Positions 3,383-60,360 of a DNA stretch of 64,000 nt are shown piece after piece (position 1 is the stretch's first letter; each line of letters begins with the position of its first letter). This DNA is from Gemmatimonadota bacterium (GTDB lineage: Bacteria > Gemmatimonadota > Gemmatimonadetes > Palauibacterales > Palauibacteraceae): contig OZ220691.1 in NCBI GenBank assembly GCA_965116475.1, forward strand, positions 352,001-416,000, read 5' to 3'. Below the pieces are notes generated by a model. It made no database searches. It was not told the DNA's origin and was given only the letters and a program-made list of their open reading frames with translations. A program made the position numbers and the translations under genes.

Positions 3383-3453
3383 CACATGGCTCCTTGCGGG
3401 AGGACTCGTCGAAAAAGGGTACGCAACGGGCAAAGCCCCGGTCAAACGCGAGG

Positions 3454-4860
3454 CTAGCGACCGTCGTCCGCGCCGCCCGGAGCCGTCGAGCCCAGCTCCA
3501 GGGGGATGGTCGCAGGCAGCCGTTTCAGGATGATCGTAGGGACATCGAACTCGTCCGTCTCGACGAAGGCGGCGAGGCCGCCGGGCCCGAACGCGTCGGG
3601 CATGGGCGTGTCCTCCAGCGACAGCGTGCCCATGTACTCGCCCTCCGGCGAGAGGACATCGATCCAGCCGGCCGCAGCGTCGTCCCCCTCCGGGCCTCCG
3701 CCCGCGGGTGCGGCCCGCGCATCGATCTGCGCCATGGGATCGCTCCCCCAGCGCTGGACCCAGATCGCCCCCTCCCAGGTCGTCCGAAGATCCCGCACGA
3801 TGGGCACCTCCGGCATGAAGCCCGCGTTCGCCACCGCGTCGCGCATGCCGGACATCATCTCCTCCATCATCGCCGCCATCTGCGCGCGAATGGCCGGCGG
3901 AAGATCGTCCGCCGACTGGCCGTTTACCTCGACTCGCGCCGAGGACTCCATGGATTCCAGCATCCGGGCCCGGGCGCGCTCCCGCAGCCGTTCCGTGACG
4001 GGTTCGGGGTGGAGGGGACGGCCCACGACACGGACTGGAGCGCCGGGGGCCGGCTGGAGCTTGATCGCGTAGGCGGAGGAATCCGAATACGCCACGCCCC
4101 CGCCGGGGAGGACATCGAACACGAGGTCGGGCACGAACCCCATGAACGCGTCGCCGAAAGCGTCGAACATGTCCGATGGATCCGCCGCCTCCATCGTGAC
4201 CTCCCGCTCCGGCTGCGCCTCCCACGCTTCGGCGAACGGCGTCGCGGCCGCCTCTTCCGCCTCGGCGAGCGACATGCGGTAGATGGTGCGGTCACCGGCC
4301 TCGATGGACACTTGCCCACCGCTGAAGCGCGCGTCCGGGCTTCGGGTCAGGAACAGCGTTTCTCCCTCCCGGGCGGCGCGCACGGCCAGCGCCGTAGCGG
4401 TCTCCGAGGCGCCCTCGATCGCGAAGCGGATCGCACGTTCGAACGACCCATCAGGGCCGAACAGGAGATGGGCCCGGTGACCATTGTCGACGATCACGAC
4501 CCCTCCGTCGGGCCGGGCCACCATGTGCCCCACCTCGCGAAGCTCGCCGGGGCCGTCGCCCCTGCGCCCGAACTCCGCCACCAGGCCGCCGACGCCGTCC
4601 ACGACCACGATGCGGGTGGAGGACCCGGCTTCGTCGCGGATGTAGAGCCGGCCGGCCGCATCGAAGGCCAGGTCCGCGATCTCCGTGAACGCGTCCCACC
4701 CCTCCGCCGCGATCCCTCCAATCCGGTACACCTCCTCGAAGTCGGTCGTGAGCGGAAGGTCCTCGTCCGGCGGCGGAGCGGCCGACCCCCCGGTCTCCCC
4801 CCCACAGCCGGCCAGCAGCGCGACCAAAACGGCAGCACGAACGCGCGAGAATCTCATCAA
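3454..4860 (-). CDS. 6-bladed beta-propeller (NHL-like) lipoprotein
   Basis: Lipobox LLAGC; FGRRGDGPGEL NHL-type motif; paralogue of 30520-31872. Confidence 0.75.
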   Translation of the reverse strand: MMRFSRVRAAVLVALLAGCGGETGGSAAPPPDEDLPLTTDFEEVYRIGGIAAEGWDAFTEIADLAFDAAGRLYIRDEAGSSTRIVVVDGVGGLVAEFGRRGDGPGELREVGHMVARPDGGVVIVDNGHRAHLLFGPDGSFERAIRFAIEGASETATALAVRAAREGETLFLTRSPDARFSGGQVSIEAGDRTIYRMSLAEAEEAAATPFAEAWEAQPEREVTMEAADPSDMFDAFGDAFMGFVPDLVFDVLPGGGVAYSDSSAYAIKLQPAPGAPVRVVGRPLHPEPVTERLRERARARMLESMESSARVEVNGQSADDLPPAIRAQMAAMMEEMMSGMRDAVANAGFMPEVPIVRDLRTTWEGAIWVQRWGSDPMAQIDARAAPAGGGPEGDDAAAGWIDVLSPEGEYMGTLSLEDTPMPDAFGPGGLAAFVETDEFDVPTIILKRLPATIPLELGSTAPGGADDGR

Positions 4861-49237: not shown

Positions 49238-51475
49238 TCAGAACACCACCCGATAGCTGACGTTCAGGCCTCGCGCGGCCTCCGGCATGATCTCCTTCAC
49301 CCGGGAGAGGTGGTTGCGGTACTCGGTATTCGTGGCGTTGGCGAGGCTCACGGTCAGGACGTTCAGACGCCCGCCGAACGTAAACCGCACCCCTGCCGCG
49401 GCGTTGAGGACGGTGTACCCGCGCGTGGGCGTCTCGAATTCGCCCACCCGGTCCTGCCGGTCGGCCATCTCGACCTCCGCCCGGACATACCACGACGGCC
49501 TCTCGTACTTCAGGGCCACATGTCCCTTGAGCGGAGGCACGAGAGGCAAGGGCCGGCCGGTCTCCTTGAGGCTGCCTTTCACCGCTGAGGCCACGCCCTC
49601 CAGCGCCAGCCCCCGCCCGGCGTCAAGGTCGACGCCGGCTTCAAAGCCGCTGAACACGGCGTCGTTGCCCTGGAACTGATAGACGGGGAGGCGCACGCGG
49701 CTCAGGCGGCCCGTGTCCTCCCCGTAGATGTGGTTCCTGATATCGTTGTGGAAGCCGGTCACCTCGGCCCTCAGCCGGTCGGACTCGAAGCGGACGAAGA
49801 CATCCAGCCCGTGCCCGACCTCGCCCTCCAGCGACGGGTTTCCGACCTCGAAGACGTACGCCGCCAGATGCGGCCCTTCCGAATAGAGTTCGGCGATGTC
49901 CGGCGTGCGAAACGCCCGGGCGACGCTGGTTCCGAGCACGAGTCCCGTGGCGGACTTGTAGAGGACACCCAGCGATCCCGACAAGGCGTGGAATCTGCGC
50001 TCGCGAATCTCGCCGATGTCCGACACCCGATCTTCCCCTGGATCGACCCGGGCCCAGTCGTAGCGCAGCCCCGACTCGACCAGGACGGCGCCGAGGTCGA
50101 CCTCCTCGAGCAGGTACAGGGCCGCCCTGAACCGACGCGTGTCCGGCGTGTGAAGGGACCCCCCATATGCGAAATCCTCCCGGGAGGCACGGCCGCCCAT
50201 CGCGCCCGCCGTGAACGGTCCCCAGCTCCCGTGCCGACCCAGGACGTCCGCGCTCGCGCTCTGTTGATCGAAGAGCGTGCCCAGAATGCCCCCCGCTTCG
50301 ATCTCGCGGTGCGTGTACGAGGTGTGCGTCGCGTCGAAGCGGAGGTTGTGGAAGGACCCGACCGGCTCATCGACGACGGTCCGGAACTTCGCCGCGACCC
50401 GCTCCATTTCGATGCGCACCCCCTCGGCGTGCCCACCCACGAATCCACCCGGGATGCCGTAGTAGTTGCGGTAGCCGCGGAAGGACGCCCCGAGACGGCC
50501 CCAATCGGCCACGTAGGCCGTGCCCGCCCCTCCGCTCAACAGTTCGCCGTCGGTGTTGAGAAGCCTGCCGGCGGGGGTCTTCAAGTCTCCAGCGGTCCGT
50601 GCGGTCACCTCCACGCGCAGCGGCACGCGCTCCGCGAGGGGGAACACGGTCGACGCGCTGCCCGCCAGCGAGCCGGTCGCGGTCTCCGTCTGCAGTGTCG
50701 CGGCGCCCGTCAGCCGGTGCGGCATCGCCGAGGGAATCTCGTCGCGGATGACGTTGATGACCCCGCCCAGCGCGTTGCCCCCGTAGAGCAGCGCGCCGGG
50801 ACCCCGCACAACCTCGATTCTCCGCGCCGACGACGGATCGAGCGCGGTGGTGTGGTCCGCGCCCGAGTTGGAAGCATCCCCGACCGCCGTCCCGTCCTCG
50901 AGCATCAGCACCCGATCGCCGCTCAACCCCCGGATCACGGGTTGCGAGACCGATGGGCCCATCCGGGTGGCGGCCAGCCCCGGCATTGACGCCAGGGTTC
51001 CGGCGACGGTCGCCGTCATCTGGCGCTGCAGGTCATCGCCCGTCATGACGCTGACCGGCCGCAGCGCCTCGGCCGCGGTGCGCTCGCTGATTGTGGCCGT
51101 CACGACCAGCTCCCCGAGCGCGATGGGAGACGGCGACAACTCGATCACGACCTCTGCCGACTCCGCCACAGCTCGGCGCGCGCGCACGGCCCCCACGGTG
51201 ACTTCCACGGTGGCGCCGCGGTATCCCAGGCGATCGGCTCGCACCGTGTACACGCCCGCCGCCATCCCGGTCAGGTGGAAGGTACCGTCCGCGCGGGTCA
51301 CGGCACGGGTTTCCCTGCCGACCACCGATACCCGCGCTCCCGCCAGGGGGAAGCCGGTATTCGCGTCGCGCACACTGCCCTCGAACACATGCCTTTGCCC
51401 CGGCTCCTGCCCGTCGACTCGGGGAACGACGAGCGCGGGGGCTACCGCAAATAACAGGACAAGCGCTTTCCGCAT
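49238..51475 (-). CDS. TonB-dependent receptor, ZnuD-like (metal uptake)
   Basis: PVIRGL.GDRV, GADH, IEVVRGPGALLYG..A.GGVIN, ELYSEGPH.A...EVGNP.L, Y.NHLS, terminal F. Confidence 0.88.
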   Translation of the reverse strand: MRKALVLLFAVAPALVVPRVDGQEPGQRHVFEGSVRDANTGFPLAGARVSVVGRETRAVTRADGTFHLTGMAAGVYTVRADRLGYRGATVEVTVGAVRARRAVAESAEVVIELSPSPIALGELVVTATISERTAAEALRPVSVMTGDDLQRQMTATVAGTLASMPGLAATRMGPSVSQPVIRGLSGDRVLMLEDGTAVGDASNSGADHTTALDPSSARRIEVVRGPGALLYGGNALGGVINVIRDEIPSAMPHRLTGAATLQTETATGSLAGSASTVFPLAERVPLRVEVTARTAGDLKTPAGRLLNTDGELLSGGAGTAYVADWGRLGASFRGYRNYYGIPGGFVGGHAEGVRIEMERVAAKFRTVVDEPVGSFHNLRFDATHTSYTHREIEAGGILGTLFDQQSASADVLGRHGSWGPFTAGAMGGRASREDFAYGGSLHTPDTRRFRAALYLLEEVDLGAVLVESGLRYDWARVDPGEDRVSDIGEIRERRFHALSGSLGVLYKSATGLVLGTSVARAFRTPDIAELYSEGPHLAAYVFEVGNPSLEGEVGHGLDVFVRFESDRLRAEVTGFHNDIRNHIYGEDTGRLSRVRLPVYQFQGNDAVFSGFEAGVDLDAGRGLALEGVASAVKGSLKETGRPLPLVPPLKGHVALKYERPSWYVRAEVEMADRQDRVGEFETPTRGYTVLNAAAGVRFTFGGRLNVLTVSLANATNTEYRNHLSRVKEIMPEAARGLNVSYRVVF

Positions 51476-51617: not shown

Positions 51618-52868
51618 ATGGGTCGCACACACCGCCGCAGGATCTCGTCCCGCCTCGCGGGCCTGGGCGTTTGCCTCGTTCTGGCCTGCGGTGCGCCGCC
51701 GGAGGCGGGCCGGGAGGGGGCGACCGAGACGGAGCGCTCGCTGTCTGCGGAAGCGACCGCGGCGCTCGTCGAGGCCTTCCAGGCCGAACTCGACGCGGCG
51801 TGGGCGCAGGCCCGGGAGACGGACGAGAACTTCCCGGGGGCGACCGCCGCGTTCATCCTCCCGGACGGGCGCGTGTTCGGGTTCGCGACCGGCCTGTCGG
51901 ACGTGGACGACGAGATCCCGATGACACCGGACATGCGCATGGGCTCCGGCAGCATCGGCAAGACGTACGTCGCGGCAGTCGCCCTGCAACTGGCCATGAG
52001 CGGAGAGCTGGATCTCGACGCGCCGGTCTCCACCTGGCTCGGCGGTGAGGCGTGGTTCTCGCGGGTCCCCAATCACGCGGATCTCACGGTGCGCAACCTC
52101 CTGAACCACACGGCCGGCATGATCCAGCCCTACTTCGAGGACCCCGACTTCGCCGTGCGGCTGGGCGAGGTGTTCCGCGATCCGGACGCCTACATGACCC
52201 CGGAGGAGTTCATCGCCGAGACGGTGCTGGACGCGGAGCCGCTCTTCCCCGCCGGCGGCGGATACCACTACAGCGACGTGCACTACACGCTGGCGGGGCT
52301 CGCCATCGAGGAGGCGACGGGCCGCGCCTACTACGATCTCCTCGACGAGTTCTTCCTCGACCCGCTCGGCCTCGACCTCACGCTGGCGGCCGACCGGCGC
52401 GACCTGCCCGGACTCGCGCAGGGCTACGCGCACCGCAGCTCGCAGCTGTACGGCACCCCGCTCGAGGTCGTCGTGGACGGCCGGCTCATCCTCCATCCCC
52501 TCCAGGAGTGGACGGGGGGCGGCCTCGTGAACAATCCGCAGGCGATGGTGCGCTGGGCGAAGCTCCTGTACGAGGGCGAGGCGATCGAGGGGGACGACCT
52601 TCCCCATTTGCTCGACGTCGGGTTCCCGCCCGACAGCACGAAGCCGCACCTGGGATACGGGCTCGCGGTGTCGGTCGCCGAGGGCGAGCACGGGCTGACG
52701 TACGGCCACGGGGGCTTCTGGCCCGGCTACAACTCGCTCCTCGCGTACTACCCGGACCACGGCGTGGCCGTCTCGATCCAGATCAACTCCGACGACTCGC
52801 GGATGCGCGACCACCTGCCGAAGCTGGCCGGCGTGGTGCTGGAAGCTTTGGGGGCCGCCGGGGGATAA
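51618..52868 (+). CDS. Serine hydrolase (beta-lactamase fold) lipoprotein
   Basis: GGAGG RBS; lipobox VLAC; SIGK, LLNHTAG, YSD, HGG. Confidence 0.88.
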   Translation: MGRTHRRRISSRLAGLGVCLVLACGAPPEAGREGATETERSLSAEATAALVEAFQAELDAAWAQARETDENFPGATAAFILPDGRVFGFATGLSDVDDEIPMTPDMRMGSGSIGKTYVAAVALQLAMSGELDLDAPVSTWLGGEAWFSRVPNHADLTVRNLLNHTAGMIQPYFEDPDFAVRLGEVFRDPDAYMTPEEFIAETVLDAEPLFPAGGGYHYSDVHYTLAGLAIEEATGRAYYDLLDEFFLDPLGLDLTLAADRRDLPGLAQGYAHRSSQLYGTPLEVVVDGRLILHPLQEWTGGGLVNNPQAMVRWAKLLYEGEAIEGDDLPHLLDVGFPPDSTKPHLGYGLAVSVAEGEHGLTYGHGGFWPGYNSLLAYYPDHGVAVSIQINSDDSRMRDHLPKLAGVVLEALGAAGG

Positions 52869-52898: not shown

Positions 52899-54275
52899 TC
52901 AGTCGGCGCGCGGGCCGGAGATCCGGGCTCCGGCGCCGAGGACGAGGATCGAGGCCAGGAGGAGGGCGGCCGCCGCCGGGAAGCCGGCCCGTGTCGCGCT
53001 CTCCTCCAGGACGGCCGGCTCGAAGGCGGGCACGCCGTCCCAGTCGACGGCATCGATCGGCGCAGCGTCGAAGAAAACCGGGTAGAAGTAGGTCTTCAGC
53101 CGCTCGTGGTGTCGGCGGACGGCGTCCTGGTAGGCGAGTTGGGCGGACAGATCGGTGGCGGCGAGGCGGTCGAGGGCAAGTTGGGCCGCGAGCGGGGGCA
53201 CGAAGAGGGACCACCGCCGGGCCCACGCTTCCCGCTCCCGCAGCACGTCCCGGTACGCATGCGAGGCCTCGCGCGCGGCCTGGTCGCCCCGGTGGTTCAT
53301 CGCGTAGTACCAGGCCCACGTGAAGACGTCCTCCGGGACCGTCCGGTCGCTCCACTCCGGGTAATCCGCGAAGAAACCGTCCATCGTCTCGGCCTTCGTC
53401 AGGTCCCAGGCCTCGTGATATCCCTGCCGCTGGCGCACGGTGAGTTCGAGCGCCTCCGGGGCGGGATGGAGGATCGCGTTCGCGAGGCTGAGCGCCGCGG
53501 GAGCCAGCAGGGTGAACCCGACCCACGTCCCCACCAGGATCATGGCGTTCGCGGTGGAGGACCGGCGCCGGGACGCGACGCAGAGGCAGAGCGCGAACCA
53601 GAAGAGGATGTGCAGCGCGATGAGCGCCGTCGCCCAGCCGGCCCGGCCGTCGAAGCTGAACCCCGCCAGCGACGCCGCGACCGCGACCGGCACCGCAACC
53701 ACCGCGCCGACGACGCAGGCGCGCGACGCGAGCTTCACGGCGAGGAGTCGCCGCGGGCGGGCGAAGAGCCGGACGAGATTCCAGGTGCCCCCCTCCCGCT
53801 CGCTGGAGACGAGGTCGTAGGTGAGGGCGATGATGAACAGAGGGAGGAGCGCGATGAGCAGGAAGGCGATGTCGAGATCGCCGGCCGCGGCGAGGCGAGG
53901 GTTCACCGTCTCGTGCTCGTAGAGTTGTCCCTCGAGCGCCAGGAGCCGGATGCGCAGGCTGGCCGCCTCGACTTCCGTTCGGCCCCGCGCAAGCGCGGCC
54001 AGAGGCAGGGACGGCTGGGGGGCCGGAAAGGCCAGGTAGTAGAGCATCTCCCCCGCTTCCGTCGCGGGAGGATAGCTGGAGAGGAGGTAGGCCAGCTGGT
54101 CGCGGTAGGCAGTCTCGGCGGCGACCGCGGAGGACTCCGCCGCTTCGATGTTGCGGCCGCCGCGCCACGCCGCGTAGAACCCGATCGCCAGTAGAAGGAC
54201 GACGGCGACGGCCACGCCGCGGGAGCGCGCCAGCCGGAGCAGTTCCAGCCTGAGGAGACGAAGCCAGACCCTCAC
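52899..54275 (-). CDS. ABC-2/DUF3526-type permease (type B, copy 2)
   Basis: GTG overlaps the upstream stop; NP.....G..D.AF...LLPL, SSEREGGT, P..L. Confidence 0.85.
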   Translation of the reverse strand: MRVWLRLLRLELLRLARSRGVAVAVVLLLAIGFYAAWRGGRNIEAAESSAVAAETAYRDQLAYLLSSYPPATEAGEMLYYLAFPAPQPSLPLAALARGRTEVEAASLRIRLLALEGQLYEHETVNPRLAAAGDLDIAFLLIALLPLFIIALTYDLVSSEREGGTWNLVRLFARPRRLLAVKLASRACVVGAVVAVPVAVAASLAGFSFDGRAGWATALIALHILFWFALCLCVASRRRSSTANAMILVGTWVGFTLLAPAALSLANAILHPAPEALELTVRQRQGYHEAWDLTKAETMDGFFADYPEWSDRTVPEDVFTWAWYYAMNHRGDQAAREASHAYRDVLREREAWARRWSLFVPPLAAQLALDRLAATDLSAQLAYQDAVRRHHERLKTYFYPVFFDAAPIDAVDWDGVPAFEPAVLEESATRAGFPAAAALLLASILVLGAGARISGPRAD

Positions 54276-55720
54276 GATGCGGCCCGATCCACCCCTACTC
54301 GCGCCAGCCGCCCTCGTGCGATGCCGAGGCCGAGCAGGGGAAGGAAAATCCACAGGCCGAGCGCGGCCAGAGAGAGCGCGCGACCGGCGAGCGCCCCACG
54401 GAGCGGGGGCGGCCGCGTCCCGAAGGTCGGGAATTCCGCCCAATGTTCGCGCGGCAGGCGCTGGGCGCGGTCGTTCTCGTAGTGGATCTGGCGGATGTGG
54501 AGATCGTTGAGGCGCTGGATGAGGTCGTACCGGTGGGCTTCCGCCTGCGCCCGGAAGGCCTCCACGGCCTCCGGCCCGGTCCCGGACACCGCCATCGAGA
54601 GGTCCCGCGCCGCCAGGTAGGGCGACAGGAGCCCCGCCCGGGACAGGACGCGGTCCTGACGGCGCTGGCCCGCGACCAGGTCCTGCTGGTGCTCCTCGTG
54701 GATCCGGCTGCTGATGGCCTCCCCTTCGCGGCTCACCACGCCGCCCCAGTTCACGGGAAGCTCCTCGACGGACGCGACCTCGTAGCGCGCCAGGTACTCG
54801 TCCCGCAGCGAGCGGAAGAAGGGGTCCTCGGGATTGTGGCTGTCCCCGACCTCGTTCAGCGCGCGTTCCACCTGGGCGGTGAACTCGGCTCGCGAGGGCA
54901 GCGGGTGCAGCGCCCCCGCGACGGAGGCCCCGAGGCGCGGCACGGCGACGCAGAAGACGACCCAGATCGCGATCAGTTGCGCGAGGGCGCTCCGCGAGGA
55001 GGCCCGGAAGGAGGATGCCAGGACGGTCAGCAGCACCCAGCCCGCCAGGTAGGCGGCGTAGATGCCCGCCAAGCCGGCCATGCGCCCGGCCGAGACCGGG
55101 CCGACCGACCCGGATCCGGCGATCACGACGGTGGCGACACCGATGGGAAGGGCGGCGAGGGCCGCCACCGCCGCCGTGCCCAGGACCTTGCCCGCAAGGA
55201 TCTGGCCCGGCGTCGCCCCCTGGGCGAGGAGGAGTCGCAACGTACCGCGCTCCCGCTCTGCGCTCACGGAGGCGAAGCCCGCGACGACGACGAACAGCGG
55301 AAGGAGGAGGGAGAGGACGGCCGCCGGCGTGAGGCGGCCGAAGCGCAGCATCCCGGTCGCATGGCGGGCATCGCCGAAATTGGCCGTGTTCTGCCGGTGT
55401 CCCTCCAGGAAGAGCGAGGTCCCCGCCCACGCGCCGACCCCCGGGTCGAAGAAGGCGAGCGGCGCCTCCTCCCGAAACACGAGGAACCCGTAGTGGATGA
55501 CCCGGTGCGGGTGACGGTCCGGCTGCTCCACCCACTGGCGCTCGACCATCGCCTGGTACCGGGCGCGCTGTTCCGCCTCGCTCGCGGCGTGGTGCCGCGC
55601 TCCGAGGACCGCGACGACGCCGAGGGCGATGACGAGCCCCAGCAGGAAGACGACGTACCGGTCCTCACGGACCGCACCCACCTGCCGGCGGGCGACGAGC
55701 AGCATGTTGCGGAGATTCAC
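54272..55720 (-). CDS. ABC-2/DUF3526-type permease (type A, copy 2)
   Basis: RHPHRVIHYG, FLEGHRQN, ERERGTL, LSMA.SGT. Confidence 0.88.
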   Translation of the reverse strand: MNLRNMLLVARRQVGAVREDRYVVFLLGLVIALGVVAVLGARHHAASEAEQRARYQAMVERQWVEQPDRHPHRVIHYGFLVFREEAPLAFFDPGVGAWAGTSLFLEGHRQNTANFGDARHATGMLRFGRLTPAAVLSLLLPLFVVVAGFASVSAERERGTLRLLLAQGATPGQILAGKVLGTAAVAALAALPIGVATVVIAGSGSVGPVSAGRMAGLAGIYAAYLAGWVLLTVLASSFRASSRSALAQLIAIWVVFCVAVPRLGASVAGALHPLPSRAEFTAQVERALNEVGDSHNPEDPFFRSLRDEYLARYEVASVEELPVNWGGVVSREGEAISSRIHEEHQQDLVAGQRRQDRVLSRAGLLSPYLAARDLSMAVSGTGPEAVEAFRAQAEAHRYDLIQRLNDLHIRQIHYENDRAQRLPREHWAEFPTFGTRPPPLRGALAGRALSLAALGLWIFLPLLGLGIARGRLARVGVDRAAS

Positions 55721-55721
55721 G

Positions 55722-57152
55722 CTAGTCGGCGCCTCGCACGCGGCTGAGCCCGATGCCCGCACCGGCACCCACCAGGATGAGGAGCGCGCCCAGGACCCCG
55801 AGGGGCAGGGCGGCGCGGCGCGCGACCTCGCCGGACGCCTCGTCGGCGAGACGGAACTGCGGTACGCGGGAAAGGACACCGGGGTCCATCTGCTCGCCGG
55901 CAACGATCGCGGGCACGAAGAAGTCACGCCATCGCTCGGCGAAGGCGCGGACCTGCGACTGGAAGGCGGCGAAGCGCGCATCTCCCGTCCCCGCCGCATC
56001 GCTGAGCACCTCCTGGGCCAGGAGCGCGGGCGACAGGAAGCGGTAGCGGCGCACGAGGGCGATCTGCTCCGCGCGGCGCGCATCGTGCTCCGCCGTCACT
56101 TCCTCGAGGCGGCGGTTGACGGCGTCCGTGGCGGCCCACGCGAGCGCCCCCAGGCCGGGCTCGTCGGCCACCACGCCCTCGGCCATCTCGGGATGGTCCT
56201 CCAGGTAGCGGGCGAGGAGTTCGCTGCGGCGATTCACGGCCTCGTTCGAGGCCTCGCGCTGGGCGGTGATCATCTGCACGCGCGACGGCAACGGGTGCAG
56301 CAGGCCCGCCGCGATGTTGATCGCGGCCGGCAGCACGACGACCAGGACCAGCCACGCGCCCACCAGTACCGTGGCGTTCCAGGCGGAGGACCGCCGCAGG
56401 CCGTTCACCCACGCCGCGAGCGCGAACCAGAAGAGCGCGTACGCGACGACCGCGGCGCACCAGAGAAGGATCCGGCCGGGCGCGCCGAAGCCCCCCGTGA
56501 CGAGGAGCCCGACCAGCGACACCCCCAGCACCATGCCCACCGCAAGGAGGGCGCGGAAGGCGAGCTTCGCCGCCACGACGCCCCGCGCCGACACGGGCTG
56601 CGACAGGGTCAGCGCCAGCGTCCCCTGTTCGCGCTCCTCGGAGAGGACGTTGAAGCTCAGGGCCAGCACGAGCAGCGGCAGGAGGTAGATGACCACAAAG
56701 GCCAGGTCGAAGCGCCCGACCATCAGGTTGAGGGGACTCTCCACCTCTCCGTTCTGCTGGAACGACGACTCGTTCGTGTAGATGTTGACGTCGTAGTAGT
56801 ACGGGAGCAGGTCGCCCTGTCCGACCGTCAGGGCCGTCAGGGGGCCAGGCGCCAGCACCGCCGTGTGGCGCCCCCGCGCCCCGCCGAGCACGTTCGGGAG
56901 CCGCGGATCCGAGAAGCGCGAAGCGGGTTCCGCGCCGTTCTCGATGTCGGCCAGTTCCTGCGTGAGAGCTTGTGTGCGCTCGACGTTTCCGGCCTGCGCG
57001 GCCTCCGCCGTGCGCTCCTGAAAGCGCGTCCAGACCACGCCGTTGGCCAGCGCGTAGACCAACAGGAGCGCGAAGAGTCCGAGCGCGATCCGGAGCGGAC
57101 GATCCGCCATGAGCAGGCGCCACTCGTTCCGGAGTACGGTGCGCGCGGTCAT
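55722..57152 (-). CDS. ABC-2/DUF3526-type permease (type B, copy 1)
   Basis: GQGDL.P, P.NL..GRFDLAFV..YLLPL, EEREQGTL, AGT. Confidence 0.88.
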   Translation of the reverse strand: MTARTVLRNEWRLLMADRPLRIALGLFALLLVYALANGVVWTRFQERTAEAAQAGNVERTQALTQELADIENGAEPASRFSDPRLPNVLGGARGRHTAVLAPGPLTALTVGQGDLLPYYYDVNIYTNESSFQQNGEVESPLNLMVGRFDLAFVVIYLLPLLVLALSFNVLSEEREQGTLALTLSQPVSARGVVAAKLAFRALLAVGMVLGVSLVGLLVTGGFGAPGRILLWCAAVVAYALFWFALAAWVNGLRRSSAWNATVLVGAWLVLVVVLPAAINIAAGLLHPLPSRVQMITAQREASNEAVNRRSELLARYLEDHPEMAEGVVADEPGLGALAWAATDAVNRRLEEVTAEHDARRAEQIALVRRYRFLSPALLAQEVLSDAAGTGDARFAAFQSQVRAFAERWRDFFVPAIVAGEQMDPGVLSRVPQFRLADEASGEVARRAALPLGVLGALLILVGAGAGIGLSRVRGAD

Positions 57153-57153
57153 C

Positions 57154-58578
57154 CTACGTCACCTCCGCGCGCCGCACGCGCGCCGCGGCGAGCAGGATCG
57201 CGCCTGCGAGCCACCCCCCGAGCACGACGAGCGACAGGATCCGGTTGCCCAGCACCCAGGCCAGGGTCGGGGCATCGTACCGCAGCGGCGGCGTGGACTC
57301 CCAGAGCTCGGCTCCGGCCTGGTAGGAGAAATCGCCGCTGCGGGAGTTCTCCGTGAGGTCGCCGTTCATCCGCCGCATCAGGTCCCGGCGGTACGTTTCC
57401 GCGGCGCTCGCGAAGTGCCGGTGCTGCTCGACATCGGTTCCGGCCAGTCCCATGGACAGGGCGCGCACCGCAAGCAGCGGCGCCGCCACCGCGACCATCT
57501 CGTGGACGGCCCCCTGGCGCTCGAACGTGTCCCAGAGCGCGCCGTAGTTGCGGTCGAAGATCCGGTTGCCAAACTCCTCGCTCGCCTGGAGCAGGACGCC
57601 CGACTGGTTGATCGGCAGGTCTTCGACCCGCTCGACCCCGTACTCCGCCAGCAGGCCCTCCGTCAGCGCCTCGTTGTCCGGACGAGCGATGTCCTCCGTG
57701 CCGGAGGCCATCTCCCGTTCCACCGTGCGGGCGAACTCGAGGGCGGAAGGCGTGGGGTGCATCCACTTCGACAGGTCCACCGCCACGCGCGGCGCCACGA
57801 GTCCGTTCACCACCCACACGCCCAGCAGGATCACCAGGGCGGTGCGCGTCGAACGGGTCCAGGCGGAGACGGCCAGCGAGAGCGCCACGAAGGCGGCAAA
57901 ATAGACCAGGTAGACGACGGCCAGGACCGCGGCCCGGGCCACCGGGGACGCCGCCGGACCGGGGCTCCCGACGACGAGTGCCGCCGCCCCCACCGCCGCC
58001 GCGGGCACCAGCAGAAGCGCCAGCGCGCCCGCGATCCCGAGCGCCTTTCCGAGCGCCAGATCGCGCCGCCCGACCCCGGTCGCGAGCAGTTGACGAAGCG
58101 TGCCCCGTTCCCGCTCGCCGGCGAGCGCGCCGAAGGTGAGCAGGATGATCAGCAGGGGCACGAGGTGCTGCAGTACCTGCGCCGCCGTGAGGGCCCCGAT
58201 GCGCTGGGCCGCCGTCGCGTCCTGGGCGGGGCGCAGCAGGAAGTCGTTCTGCCGGTGCGCCTCCAGCCACACCGATGTCCCGGTGTAGGGGTCCACGCCC
58301 TCGTCCACGAAGGAGAGCGCGAGGCGGGGCTTGAACGCATAGACGCCGTAGTGAGCCGCGGAATGGGGATTCTTCTCGCCCTGCGACTCCCAGTGATCGC
58401 GAGCCGTCGCCTGTGCGGCCGCGTGCTCCCGCTGCGCCTCCCGCGCCTGGACCCACCCGTGGCCCAGGGAGACGAGCAGCAGCGCTCCAACGAGGACGGA
58501 GCACCACCTGAAACGGCCGTCCCGAAGTACGTCTGTGAATTCCTTGCGGATGATGTGGCGGATGCTGTGCCTGATCAT
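57154..58578 (-). CDS. ABC-2/DUF3526-type permease (type A, copy 1)
   Basis: KNPHSAAHYG, WLEAHRQN, ERERGTL, LSMGLAGTD..H..F...AE.YR. Confidence 0.88.
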   Translation of the reverse strand: MIRHSIRHIIRKEFTDVLRDGRFRWCSVLVGALLLVSLGHGWVQAREAQREHAAAQATARDHWESQGEKNPHSAAHYGVYAFKPRLALSFVDEGVDPYTGTSVWLEAHRQNDFLLRPAQDATAAQRIGALTAAQVLQHLVPLLIILLTFGALAGERERGTLRQLLATGVGRRDLALGKALGIAGALALLLVPAAAVGAAALVVGSPGPAASPVARAAVLAVVYLVYFAAFVALSLAVSAWTRSTRTALVILLGVWVVNGLVAPRVAVDLSKWMHPTPSALEFARTVEREMASGTEDIARPDNEALTEGLLAEYGVERVEDLPINQSGVLLQASEEFGNRIFDRNYGALWDTFERQGAVHEMVAVAAPLLAVRALSMGLAGTDVEQHRHFASAAETYRRDLMRRMNGDLTENSRSGDFSYQAGAELWESTPPLRYDAPTLAWVLGNRILSLVVLGGWLAGAILLAAARVRRAEVT

Positions 58579-58596: not shown

Positions 58597-59337
58597 CTAG
58601 TCGTGCATGTGTTCCAGGTAGATGCGCTCGAGATCCGCGTGGCCGATCTCGTCCGTGCTCATCTCCGTGACGAGGCCTCCGTAACGCATGATGCCCACGC
58701 GCGTCCCGGTCTCCTTGGCGCGAAACAGGTCGTGGGTCGCCATGAGCACCGCGACCCCGCCGTGCCTGAGCCGTTCGATCAGGGCCGAGAACTCGTTGGA
58801 GGCCTTGGGGTCGAGGCCGGACGTCGGCTCGTCGAGCAGGAGGGCGTCCGCTTCCTTGGCCATCGCGATCGCGATGCCGACCTTCTGCCGCATGCCCTTG
58901 GAGTACTCGGACACGCGGCGGTCGACCGCGTCGCGCTCCAGACCGGCTTCGACGAGGATGTCCGCGAGCCGCTCGCGCCCCAGCGACCCTTTCCCCCCCA
59001 GGGCGGCGAAGTACTCGAGGTTCTCGAGTCCGCTGAGGTTGCGGTACAGCATCACCTGCTCGGGGATGTAGGCGAGCCGGCGCTTCGTCTCGCGGTCGTG
59101 GGCGGACACGTCCAGCCCGGAGACCAGGGCCTGGCCTCCCGACGGCGACACGAAGCCGAGGAAAAGGTTGATCGTCGTGGTCTTCCCCGCCCCGTTGGGG
59201 CCGAGGAGGCAGTAGACCTCTCCCGGCTCGATGGCCAGGTCGAGGGAATCGAGGGCCTGCGTGGCGCCGTAGCGCTTGCTGAGCCCGCGGGCCTCGAGGA
59301 GGGGCGGCTGCCCCGCTCTCGATTCGGCGGTCTGCAT
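58597..59337 (-). CDS. ABC transporter ATP-binding protein
   Basis: Walker A GPNGAGKTT, signature YSKGM, Walker B LLLDEP, H-loop TH. Confidence 0.95.
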   Translation of the reverse strand: MQTAESRAGQPPLLEARGLSKRYGATQALDSLDLAIEPGEVYCLLGPNGAGKTTTINLFLGFVSPSGGQALVSGLDVSAHDRETKRRLAYIPEQVMLYRNLSGLENLEYFAALGGKGSLGRERLADILVEAGLERDAVDRRVSEYSKGMRQKVGIAIAMAKEADALLLDEPTSGLDPKASNEFSALIERLRHGGVAVLMATHDLFRAKETGTRVGIMRYGGLVTEMSTDEIGHADLERIYLEHMHD

Positions 59338-59341
59338 GGGT

Positions 59342-59455
59342 CTCCATCTCTCGCGTTGGCCGCGCCATCAGCGGCGCGGTCGACAAGTCTCCTGCCGGTC
59401 TCCGGACCGGGAGAGCGGCTCTTCGCTACAGACTTTCGCTACAGAGAGATGGGAA
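59342..59455 (-). promoter_or_regulatory. RBS-sequestering mRNA structure between leader ORF and ABC ATPase
   Basis: mRNA CCAUCUCUC (59452-59444) is complementary to GAGAGAUGG (59352-59344), overlapping the GGAG SD; internal hairpins at 59395-59410 and 59360-59379. Confidence 0.7.
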
Positions 59456-59756
59456 GCGGGGGAGCCCGGCTGCGGTGAGGAGAGAGATGGACCGCCCGGA
59501 CATTCAGCCGGTGTCCGCGAAGCGCCGGAGCCGGCACGAGACGGGGACCGCCGACAGTCGGCGTCACCGTGGACACCACCGGGTCCGCCTTGTGCGTCAG
59601 TTCGCATATCGAACACGCCGCCGGCGAATCGGCGTCGTCGTCATGCGAATGCGTACCCTCCGCGAGGCCGACGACGACGAGCGAAAGGCCCACCAGGATT
59701 CCGGGCAGCCAGCGCATGTGGCGCCTGGGTCCTCCGGCATCAACCTGGTTTGCCAT
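59439..59756 (-). CDS. DUF2946/CruR-like leader protein with CxxC and RAPP arrest motif
   Basis: GGGAGGGGAG RBS; hydrophobic signal segment; THSHDDD; CSIC...H; C-terminal SRAPPLPISL*. Confidence 0.8.
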   Translation of the reverse strand: MANQVDAGGPRRHMRWLPGILVGLSLVVVGLAEGTHSHDDDADSPAACSICELTHKADPVVSTVTPTVGGPRLVPAPALRGHRLNVRAVHLSPHRSRAPPLPISL

Positions 59757-59818
59757 GGCTCCCCTCCCGTCCCGCGAATCGGCGCGCCGGCCCGCCCGGA
59801 AGCGGCCGCGGCGGCGGC

Positions 59819-59853
59819 ACCTTAGAGAACGCACGATGCCCGGTCAACGTTGA
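59819..59853 (-). promoter_or_regulatory. Sigma70-like promoter with a palindrome over the -35 box
   Basis: TTGACC (59847-59842), 17-nt spacer, TAAGGT (59824-59819); perfect palindrome TCAACGTTGA at 59844-59853. Confidence 0.6.
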
Positions 59854-59880
59854 GCCCAATGACGTGGAGCTAGTGTGGGG

Positions 59881-60360
59881 CTAGTAGAGCGTGCGGTCGC
59901 GCTTTCGGGTCCAGCGCTCGAAGGCGACCCCTGCCCGGTCGGAAGGGATGCGCACGAGCGAGACGATCCGGCGCTCCGCGGGCGGCAGGGAGAACTCGTC
60001 GTAGATGTCTTCGTCGCTGAACCGGATACGGGCCGCGTCCTCGCGGGTGTTGGCGTAGTACACGCGCCGGATCCGGCTCCAGTAGATCGCCCCCAGGCAC
60101 ATCGGGCACGGCTCGCAGCTCGCGTAGAGCTCGCAGCCGCCGAGATCGAACGTGCCCAGGAGCTCGCAGGCCGTTCGAATCGCCCGGATTTCGGCGTGGG
60201 CCGTGGGATCGTTGTCCAGCGTGACGCGGTTCGTCCCCTCGGCGACGATCTCGCCGCCCTTCACCACGACGGCGCCGAACGGCCCGCCGCCCTCCTGGAC
60301 GCTGCGCTCGGACAGCTCGATGGCCCGCTCGATGGCCCGCCTCATGAACTCGTCATGCAT
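59881..60360 (-). CDS. guaD: Nucleoside/guanine deaminase (cytidine deaminase fold)
   Basis: GGPFGAV, NDPTAHAEI.AIR, SCEPCPMCLGAIYW, F.D..IY.E. Confidence 0.88.
   Translation of the reverse strand: MHDEFMRRAIERAIELSERSVQEGGGPFGAVVVKGGEIVAEGTNRVTLDNDPTAHAEIRAIRTACELLGTFDLGGCELYASCEPCPMCLGAIYWSRIRRVYYANTREDAARIRFSDEDIYDEFSLPPAERRIVSLVRIPSDRAGVAFERWTRKRDRTLY

Follow-up and report, generated by a model that had tools for sequence, protein, structure and literature searches.

Background

Proteins of the DUF2946 type are described as having a CXXC motif, a C-terminal RAPP motif, about 45 residues (within 1-2) between the two, an export signal and a position as the first gene of an operon (Roy et al., PMC9426467). 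In CruR, ribosomes stall at RAPP when copper is absent, and copper relieves the stall, which leads to Rho-dependent termination (PMC9426467). In toeprints of RAPP arrest, the P site holds Pro3 of the motif and the A site holds Pro4 (PMC12992588), and the arrest, this P/A-site position and resistance to elongation factor P (EF-P) have been shown for ApdA/ApdP and CruR (PMC12992588; PMC10951233). RAPP-containing upstream open reading frames (uORFs) precede genes for TonB receptors, YcnI, PCuAC, PepSY, DsbA and thioredoxin (Fujiwara et al., PMC12992588). With CutF, the stalled nascent metal sensor melts a stem that shields the following gene's Shine-Dalgarno (SD) sequence (PMC9973294; 10.1101/2025.02.05.636593). 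Here we describe a locus in a 64,000-nucleotide (nt) stretch of a Gemmatimonadota genome (contig OZ220691.1), referred to as the window, in which a leader gene of 105 codons precedes genes for an ATP-binding cassette (ABC) transporter. Comparison of the sequence with its relatives suggests that the leader is probably a cis-acting, metal-sensing ribosome-arrest peptide of the CruR/CutF (DUF2946) kind, which would control a five-gene ABC-2/DUF3526 operon.

A candidate DUF2946-type leader peptide

A first-pass annotation, made from the window's sequence, had described a 105-residue reading frame with a ribosome-binding site, a hydrophobic segment at about residues 16-34, the motifs HSH (residues 36-38) and CSIC (residues 48-51), His55, a spacer of about 45 residues, and RAPP five codons before the stop codon. 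Each of these features is found where it had been placed (Table 1). The hydropathy peak covers residues 17-31 (mean 2.45), follows basic residues, and is a candidate export signal.

A search of 5.8 billion proteins found 44 leader homologues (E = 5.5e-51 to 3.5e-11), whose named sources are Candidatus Palauibacter and other Gemmatimonadota and some of which carry the name DUF2946 from their sources. RAPP is invariant in all 45 leader sequences, so that the loss of the motif from orthologues, which had been considered, is not seen; it is followed by five residues and a stop codon in 44 of the 45. All 45 homologues, and likewise the 13 receptor-linked leaders introduced below, have exactly 45 residues between CxxC and RAPP. 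The invariant residues are R15, E33, H36, H38, C48, C51, S92, R95, S96, R97, A98, P99, P100 and S104, and His55 is present in 90% or more of the 45 sequences. The last 17 residues, with the tail VHLSPHRSRAPPLPISL, are near-invariant, whereas the middle of the leader diverges freely.

This pattern bears on the possibility that the leader is not a regulator, and is instead a small exported metal-binding protein that partners the transporter, in which case the RNA complementarity described below would be incidental. The conserved His and Cys residues and the export segment would suit such a protein, and many operons begin with genes for small periplasmic partners. However, the near-invariance is confined to the C-terminal residues, RAPP is strongly avoided in ordinary proteins (PMC12992588), and synonymous-site selection and an invariant complementary non-coding 9-mer point to a function of the RNA. 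A simple partner protein is therefore considered extremely improbable.

The leader appears to be a diverged member of DUF2946, a placement made on motif architecture, with a weak profile match. It has the CXXC motif, the C-terminal RAPP, the gap of about 45 residues and the operon-first position, with a spacer of 101 nt before the next gene. The CutF-type CxxxC and C-terminal PPP are absent, the leader having CxxC and the tail RAPPLP, and the gene downstream encodes an ABC ATPase, not a protein-localisation function as in ApdA/ApdP-type placement. The profile search proposed in the first-pass annotation gave a divided answer: PF11162 does match the window leader at E = 6e-4, but the 21.0 bits are fewer than the gathering cut-off of 23.7. 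The profile is matched at E <= 0.001 by 22 of the 45 leader homologues. NCBIfam offers no specific family name for the leader.

A predicted helix over the ATPase Shine-Dalgarno sequence

The second part of the element lies in the mRNA. The end of the leader coding region contains a 9-mer, arm 2 (CCAUCUCUC), that is the exact complement of the 3' arm (GAGAGAUGG), and the 3' arm overlaps the GGAG SD of the ATPase gene. This perfect complementarity was claimed in the first-pass annotation together with two G+C-rich hairpins between the arms, and both are present (Table 1). The 127-nt stretch has a folding energy of -53.6 kcal/mol (z = -2.73), and 1 of 200 shuffled sequences was as stable. In the window this stretch folds into three branches, with arm 2 and the 3' arm forming the closing helix.

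Among 39 related loci, 24 have the leader before the same ABC ATPase and 13 have it before a protein of about 750-820 residues. The other two, L027 at a contig edge and L039, a weak match in a Caldilineaceae record, were excluded. The ABC-linked set therefore comprises 25 sequences with the window (24 distinct alignment rows), and the receptor-linked set comprises the 13 other loci.

The closing helix is part of the minimum-energy fold of all 25 ABC-linked loci, and the complementarity, whose loss from orthologues had been raised as a concern, is kept in every one of them. Across the 24 distinct sequences 99.1% of cells are paired, compared with 32-51% when the partner is slid by one to three columns. 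Six pairs never vary, one changes from A-U to G.U in 6 of the 24 rows, and each of the two end pairs is lost in a single row. No variation is seen in the 3' arm among the 25 loci or in the more distant L052, whereas the non-coding spacer that flanks it varies. Covariation of the nine-pair helix, which the first-pass annotation had proposed to look for, did not emerge: no pair is changed on both sides in the 24 distinct sequences. Because both arms are invariant, covariation is not demonstrable for this helix, and the predicted pairing is based on conservation and complementarity. Only the two inner hairpins, both part of the consensus structure, have compensatory changes, at 4 pairs and in 11 cells.

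Just upstream of arm 1, a second copy of the 9-mer that is described below, the segment GGCGGUC...CAU (59491-59500) can pair with the ATPase start, AUG CA GACCGCC (59326-59337), and in the fold predicted for the window's own sequence the long-range helix thereby reaches across the AUG. Relatives do not share this pairing, and it was dropped.

A second arm and ribosome-constrained folds

Arm 1 is an identical 9-mer that sits 30 nt upstream of arm 2 and was overlooked in the first-pass annotation. Paired with the 3' arm, it has 98.1% of cells paired; 4 of the 24 rows have one mismatch, which stems from a synonymous change of CAU to CAC or from a change to CGG. Mean duplex energies are -18.5 kcal/mol for arm 1 and -19.2 kcal/mol for arm 2, against about -11 +/- 3.6 to 3.9 for shuffles, and these means are reached by 4.2% and 1.7% of shuffles, respectively. 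The upstream copy of the receptor-linked loci is not complementary to their own SD region (-9.4 versus -9.2 for shuffles).

Codon choice also differs between the arms and the rest of the leader. Ser104 is encoded by UCU in 25 of 25 loci, and UCU accounts for 2 of 165 serine codons (1.2%) in seven neighbouring genes. Similarly, His90 is CAU in 21 of 24, and CAU makes up 15% of the histidine codons of those genes. Invariant residues outside the arms (C48, H94, R95, S96, A98, P99) use several codons. These counts, which come from related genomes and are not independent events, suggest RNA-level selection on the coding arms, in which the rare UCU of Ser104 would keep the closing helix in place.

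Folds constrained by ribosomes were calculated with an equilibrium thermodynamic model, as the mean unpaired probability of 12 nt around the SD in the 25 loci. This probability is 0.14 for free mRNA. The toeprinted P/A-site position of RAPP arrest puts the front edge of the ribosome inside arm 2; an arrested ribosome would span about 59476-59447, covering the first part of arm 2 and leaving arm 1 about 5 nt behind it. With one ribosome on RAPP the probability is 0.17, and 78% of the pairing is taken by arm 1. With a ribosome at the leader stop codon it is 0.18, and 70% of the pairing is to arm 1. Blocking arm 1 as well raises it to 0.38-0.44. The first-pass annotation had held that a ribosome stalled at RAPP covers the 5' arm and so frees the SD. 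The geometry supports the first half of this statement, but the fold with the ribosome footprint blocked keeps the SD region closed, contrary to the second half. Because arm 1 re-closes the SD in the models, a stall that frees the SD needs an occluded arm 1 or a queued ribosome.

The same folds are relevant to translational coupling, in which finished translation of the leader would open arm 2 and hand the ribosome to the ATPase start, and RAPP arrest would lower expression. The stop codon is 3 nt from the helix, and the closed junction would set a terminating ribosome beside the SD and AUG. However, the ribosome modelled at the stop codon leaves the SD closed through arm 1, the 101-nt spacer is long for reinitiation, and an invariant arrest motif is hard to explain as a mere brake. 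Such coupling is highly unlikely.

Proposed mechanism

We favor a switch in which, without metal, the nascent leader peptide would halt its ribosome at RAPP, Pro99 occupying the P site and Pro100 the A site. This ribosome would sit on arm 2, and arm 1 would be blocked by its bulk or by a second, queued ribosome. With both arms blocked, the ATPase SD would be open and the transporter would be made; the arrested ribosome might also shield a C-rich stretch where Rho could load. Metal bound to the emerging His and Cys residues would relieve the arrest, and the ribosome would terminate. Either arm could then re-close the SD, Rho may terminate transcription, and the operon would be off.

A further idea, which is speculative and on balance doubtful, is that the two anti-SD 9-mers, which flank RAPP in different frames, act as a filter on the duration of the arrest. 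Whenever a ribosome passes, makes a short pause or terminates, one 9-mer would stay free to re-close the SD. Only a long-lived arrest would cover both copies, the downstream one by the arrested ribosome and the upstream one by a queued ribosome or by ribosome bulk, and so expose the SD. If true, this would be an undescribed conversion of a metal-set arrest lifetime into a sharp on/off translational decision. The duplicated arm may in any case offer a natural system for studying how an mRNA switch reads the duration of an arrest.

Table 1. Positions of the leader, the predicted RNA structure and nearby genes in the window
Feature	Positions	Strand	Details
Leader open reading frame, 105 codons + TAG	59439..59756	minus	DUF2946/CruR-type candidate arrest peptide; ATG 59756, TAG 59441-59439
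Leader SD GGGAGGGGAG	59759..59768	minus	2 nt before leader ATG
Hydrophobic export/anchor segment, residues 17-31	59664..59708	minus	Top 15-residue Kyte-Doolittle window, mean 2.45
Candidate metal-ligand region	59592..59651	minus	H36-S-H38 59651-59643; C48-S-I-C51 59615-59604; H55 59594-59592
RAPP codons CGG GCU CCC CCG, residues 97-100	59457..59468	minus	Predicted arrest with Pro99 in P site, Pro100 in A site
Arm 1, upstream CCAUCUCUC copy	59482..59490	minus	Codons V89-H90-L91-S92, not in the frame of arm 2; can pair with the SD arm instead
Arm 2, CCAUCUCUC	59444..59452	minus	Codons P102-I103-S104-L105; 5' arm of predicted SD-masking helix
3' arm GAGAGAUGG with ATPase SD GGAG	59342..59352	minus	3' arm 59352-59344; GGAG 59345-59342, four bases before ATG 59337
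Structured spacer (predicted)	59360..59438	minus	Outer stem 59438-59430 with 59390-59381; hairpin 1 59413-59392; hairpin 2 59379-59360
C-rich, G-poor mRNA stretch, candidate Rho-loading region	59425..59545	minus	C 0.38-0.48, G 0.20-0.35, 60-nt windows
Candidate promoter TTGACC-17 nt-TAAGGT	59819..59847	minus	TTGACC 59847-59842; TAAGGT 59824-59819; seen by alignment only
ABC ATPase, 246 residues	58597..59337	minus	PF00005 at 9.1e-28
Four ABC-2/DUF3526 permeases	52899..58578	minus	58578-57154; 57152-55722; 55720 (or 55705)-54272; 54275-52899
TonB-dependent receptor	49238..51475	minus	Pfam; own start region, no leader; outside ABC operon

Upstream region, transcription and Rho

The closest group of loci keeps a GGAAGGGGAG-like block at the leader SD, and alignment of their upstream regions reveals the candidate promoter, with TTGACC present in 11 and TAAGGT in 9 of the 12 loci. 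A strict consensus scan of 59250-59950 called no promoter-like and no terminator-like site, leaving the candidate promoter uncalled as well. The same scan gave no independent ATPase promoter between leader and ATPase, a feature that the first-pass annotation had recognized as damaging to its proposal. Rfam models gave no family at threshold in 59200-59950. The only match, to the viral pseudoknot RF01109, has 26.4 bits against a gathering score of 33 and was treated as chance.

Downstream of the candidate promoter and ahead of the leader SD, the 5' untranslated region has a G+C-rich hairpin (59775-59815, minus strand). A stem is kept at this place in both groups of ABC-linked loci, with different sequence. 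The more distant ABC-linked loci (L014-L022, L031, L032 and L036) have a palindrome, TGATTGCA-A-TGCAATCA, upstream of or over the leader promoter, and the receptor-linked loci L018, L023, L024, L028-L030 and L033 have a Fur-box-like TGATAA...TTATCA by the promoter. These palindromes of relatives suggest a second, transcriptional layer of control by Fur-family regulators. A Fur-type box was not seen in the window's own upstream region.

The C-rich stretch covers the arrest-peptide codons and the end of the leader, and resembles the C>G bubble that was mapped in cruR (PMC9426467). Rho is encoded in the genome (2 PF07497 matches over the cut-off). Perhaps, then, the main output is transcriptional, as in CruR: the arrested ribosome would shield a Rho site, relief of arrest would lead to termination in the spacer, and the SD helix would be secondary or set a basal level. 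The position of the C>G stretch (59545-59425) and the presence of Rho with no intrinsic terminator fit this reading, and this is how the one RAPP-type DUF2946 member that has been studied was shown to work (PMC9426467). However, it leaves unexplained the invariant 3' arm and the two complementary coding 9-mers with rare codons. Moreover, the cruR region is described as unstructured, with a spacer of 162 nt, whereas the spacer here has a compact conserved fold. Rho as the principal output is thus rather unlikely. The two outputs are mutually compatible, and a Rho-dependent component beside SD masking is plausible.

Distribution and gene orders

The leader subfamily is present in 35 of 301 sampled genomes of the phylum, with occurrences in two families only, the window's (14 of 22) and a second one (20 of 47), and was not found in the remaining 232 sampled genomes. 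A six-frame search of the genomes with the Pfam DUF2946 model was insensitive, matching 22 of the 301 and missing the window's own copy. The window genome has a single copy of the leader.

In the receptor-linked loci, the downstream proteins are TonB-dependent receptors in 5 of 5 cases tested. Both arrangements co-occur in four records or assemblies, and the HxH/CxxC sensor and the SPHRSRAPP arrest block are common to ABC-linked and receptor-linked leaders. The operon in G177, a genome from the window's genus, runs from the leader through the ATPase and a pair of DUF3526 permeases to a second RAPP leader, which is followed by a TonB receptor and the remaining two DUF3526 permeases. Because the second leader and the receptor lie between permeases 2 and 3, the four permeases behave as two pairs, and the position of the receptor inside the ABC operon indicates that it belongs to the same transcription unit. 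The co-occurrence of the two arrangements, the order in G177 and the 52% identity of the window's receptor to a leader-controlled receptor, detailed below, suggest that the ABC-2/DUF3526 system and this type of TonB receptor belong together.

The G177 locus (L063, G177:C35, 1-13400, minus strand) has the inserted leader tail RSRAPPLPTSP and a receptor of 802 residues. In receptor-linked L025 (3289-3541), the reading frame continues for about 80 codons past RAPP owing to a frameshift at a C run with one additional base, which reflects either a defective leader or a homopolymer assembly error. In receptor-linked L012 (about 3415-3510), and at the same place in L023, L028, L035 and L038, an insert of 100-190 nt lies between the SD-like GGAGAC, which comes after the hairpins, and the receptor gene. 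The insert keeps a conserved CCACCCGGC block, and in L012 it contains a 23-codon mini-reading frame starting MTPPPGEP. It may be a second small proline-rich leader or a remnant of one.

The ABC operon and the sign of control

The ATPase and permease genes follow one another without gaps, the permease genes abutting or overlapping, and form a tight five-gene operon headed by the leader. The closest bacterial solved relative of the ATPase is NosF (1.1e-43), and its nearest NCBIfam entry is of the DrrA type, below the cut-off. All four permeases match PF12679 and PF12040 and are the sole DUF3526 matches in the 3.62-Mb genome. The only solved relative of a permease by sequence is NosY, at a marginal E = 4.9e-4, and NCBIfam has no specific name for the permeases. 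Upstream of the leader, on the same strand, is a gene of the cytidine/deoxycytidylate deaminase family.

The TonB-dependent receptor near the operon is likely, from its relatives, to be a partner of the ABC system. Over 741 residues it shares 52% identity with the L018 receptor, whose gene comes after a leader of this subfamily, and among solved structures its top relative is ZnuD (8.8e-30), followed by heme receptors and OprC. ZnuD is also its top NCBIfam match, at 200 bits against a cut-off of 950. A beta-lactamase-fold gene (about 51618-52868, plus strand) separates the receptor from the ABC operon, being convergent with the operon and divergent from the receptor. Receptors of this kind in relatives have their own RAPP leader. 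Among 14 control genomes, DUF3526 was found only in Caulobacter, in which ZnuH and ZnuI may be the DUF3526 proteins.

These data indicate that the ABC operon most likely belongs to a TonB-dependent route of metal acquisition, and that it probably encodes a system for metal uptake that abundant metal turns off. Zinc and copper are the leading candidates for the metal, on weak hints. By analogy, repletion turning the operon off is the likelier sign, and a reasonably probable one, since leaders of the same subfamily control importers and CruR is switched off by metal.

Alternatively, the sign could be that of CutF: metal would strengthen or prolong the arrest, open the SD and induce an ABC-2 exporter for detoxification or periplasmic trafficking. 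CutF works in this way, with an SD-masking stem-loop (PMC9973294; 10.1101/2025.02.05.636593), ABC-2 ATPases of the DrrA/NosF type typically belong to exporters, and NosY is the permease's sole solved relative. However, leaders of the same subfamily with SPHRSRAPP control TonB-dependent importers, whose induction by excess metal would be maladaptive. The motifs are RAPP and CxxC, as in CruR, rather than PPP and CxxxC, and the Fur-family-like palindromes upstream in relatives are typical of uptake genes. Induction by metal is accordingly judged improbable.

Several observations weigh against the proposed switch as a whole. We infer arrest, metal binding and regulation alike, and the Pfam score of the window leader itself is under the gathering cut-off. 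The closing helix lacks compensatory double changes, its arms being almost invariant. In the models a single RAPP ribosome leaves the SD closed, with arm 1 replacing arm 2, and the additional blocking of arm 1 that opening needs is an assumption. Among receptor-linked loci, a GUCUC(U)CUGU:CAGGAGAC helix occurs in 10 of 13 minimum-energy folds, but the tail:SD duplex has a mean energy of -13.9 versus -10.1 +/- 4.0 for shuffles, 16% of which reach that value (11 loci, excluding the frameshifted L025 and the duplicate L034). Pairing of these tails with the ABC-type SD region is at least as strong (-18.0), owing to the near-identity of the tails. An 888-nt contig of a related strain from RNA-library run X4 covers 59189-59853, bridging leader, spacer and ATPase start, and is weakly informative; it also occurs in DNA run X3 with flat depth ratios and so demonstrates neither transcription nor attenuation. 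Finally, ABC-2 systems are usually exporters, the nearest solved relative here is NosFY, and the opposite sign, with metal as inducer, is possible.

Comparison with known systems

The first-pass annotation, which named the CruR and CutF precedents, did not recognize an ABC ATPase target with His-rich ligands that may suit Zn, Ni or Co as described. The novelty it claimed has to be narrowed, as both a sensor-arrest module and masking of the downstream SD are already published, in CruR and CutF. The ABC-2/DUF3526 target, the occurrence in Gemmatimonadota and the doubled anti-SD arm alone appear to be new. An ABC-linked DUF2946/RAPP leader was not found in the literature searched, which comprised texts and part of the supplements and not the figures that list downstream gene classes, and DUF3526 was not found in the literature search. 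The texts examined also name no ABC transporter and no Gemmatimonadota. ABC transporters are absent from the main text of PMC12992588 and from its supplementary files, apart from one file outside the search. Likewise, the terms ABC, DUF3526 and Gemmatimon do not occur in the searched supplements of PMC9973294 or PMC12992588, that one file of the latter aside.

If correct, our proposal extends nascent-chain metal sensing of the CruR/CutF kind to Gemmatimonadota, the closest named relatives being sponge-associated Candidatus Palauibacter. It would also place a new cargo, the uncharacterised NosY-like DUF3526 ABC-2 transporters, under such a leader. Co-regulation and linkage with ZnuD-like TonB receptors would be a first functional hint, toward metal acquisition, for DUF3526, and would tie this ABC-2 family to TonB-dependent metal uptake.

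Two known systems resemble the cargo. The ATPase and permeases match NosFY of the NosDFY copper-trafficking complex (PDB 7o0y) by sequence; no NosD or NosL is present here. The Zur-repressed ZnuK and ZnuGHI of Caulobacter crescentus (PMC4176598) combine a TonB receptor with an ABC-2 system, as the locus here does, and ZnuGHI is described as being under Zur control at its promoter, with no leader (PMC4176598).

The remaining systems resemble the leader. As in ApdA, ApdP and the Streptomyces lividans uORFs, RAPP lies close to the end of a small protein, secreted or membrane-bound, that precedes the regulated gene; those leaders are reported to monitor Sec/YidC or other functions (PMC12992588; PMC10951233). 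CutF of the Rhodobacter capsulatus cutFOG operon is a cis-acting nascent exported sensor, as the leader is proposed to be, with a stem that shields the next SD, a stem predicted in silico in the present case. CutF is described as having CxxxC, PPP, a stall relieved by EF-P, induction by copper and a copper oxidase target (PMC9973294; 10.1101/2025.02.05.636593). The leader described here, in contrast, has CxxC and RAPP, a type reported to be EF-P-resistant, and has a transporter target, a sign that is probably opposite, and two anti-SD arms.

The closest match to the leader itself is CruR (Bp2923) of Bordetella pertussis, the prototype of DUF2946, which is also a small first gene with CXXC, 45 residues, RAPP and a C-rich 3' part, and whose export signal may have its counterpart in the hydrophobic segment here. 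Moreover, like cruR, relatives of this leader precede TonB receptors. In CruR, Rho terminates transcription in the spacer and the published text reports no SD-masking helix (PMC9426467), whereas here the SD would be masked by either of two coding 9-mers. Unlike CruR, the leader is followed by an ABC ATPase and four DUF3526 permeases and has an added invariant HxH, and its host belongs to the Gemmatimonadota, a phylum that is absent from the taxa listed in the text of the CruR paper (PMC9426467). The locus thus appears to join a CruR-type sensor and arrest module to a CutF-type, SD-masking output.

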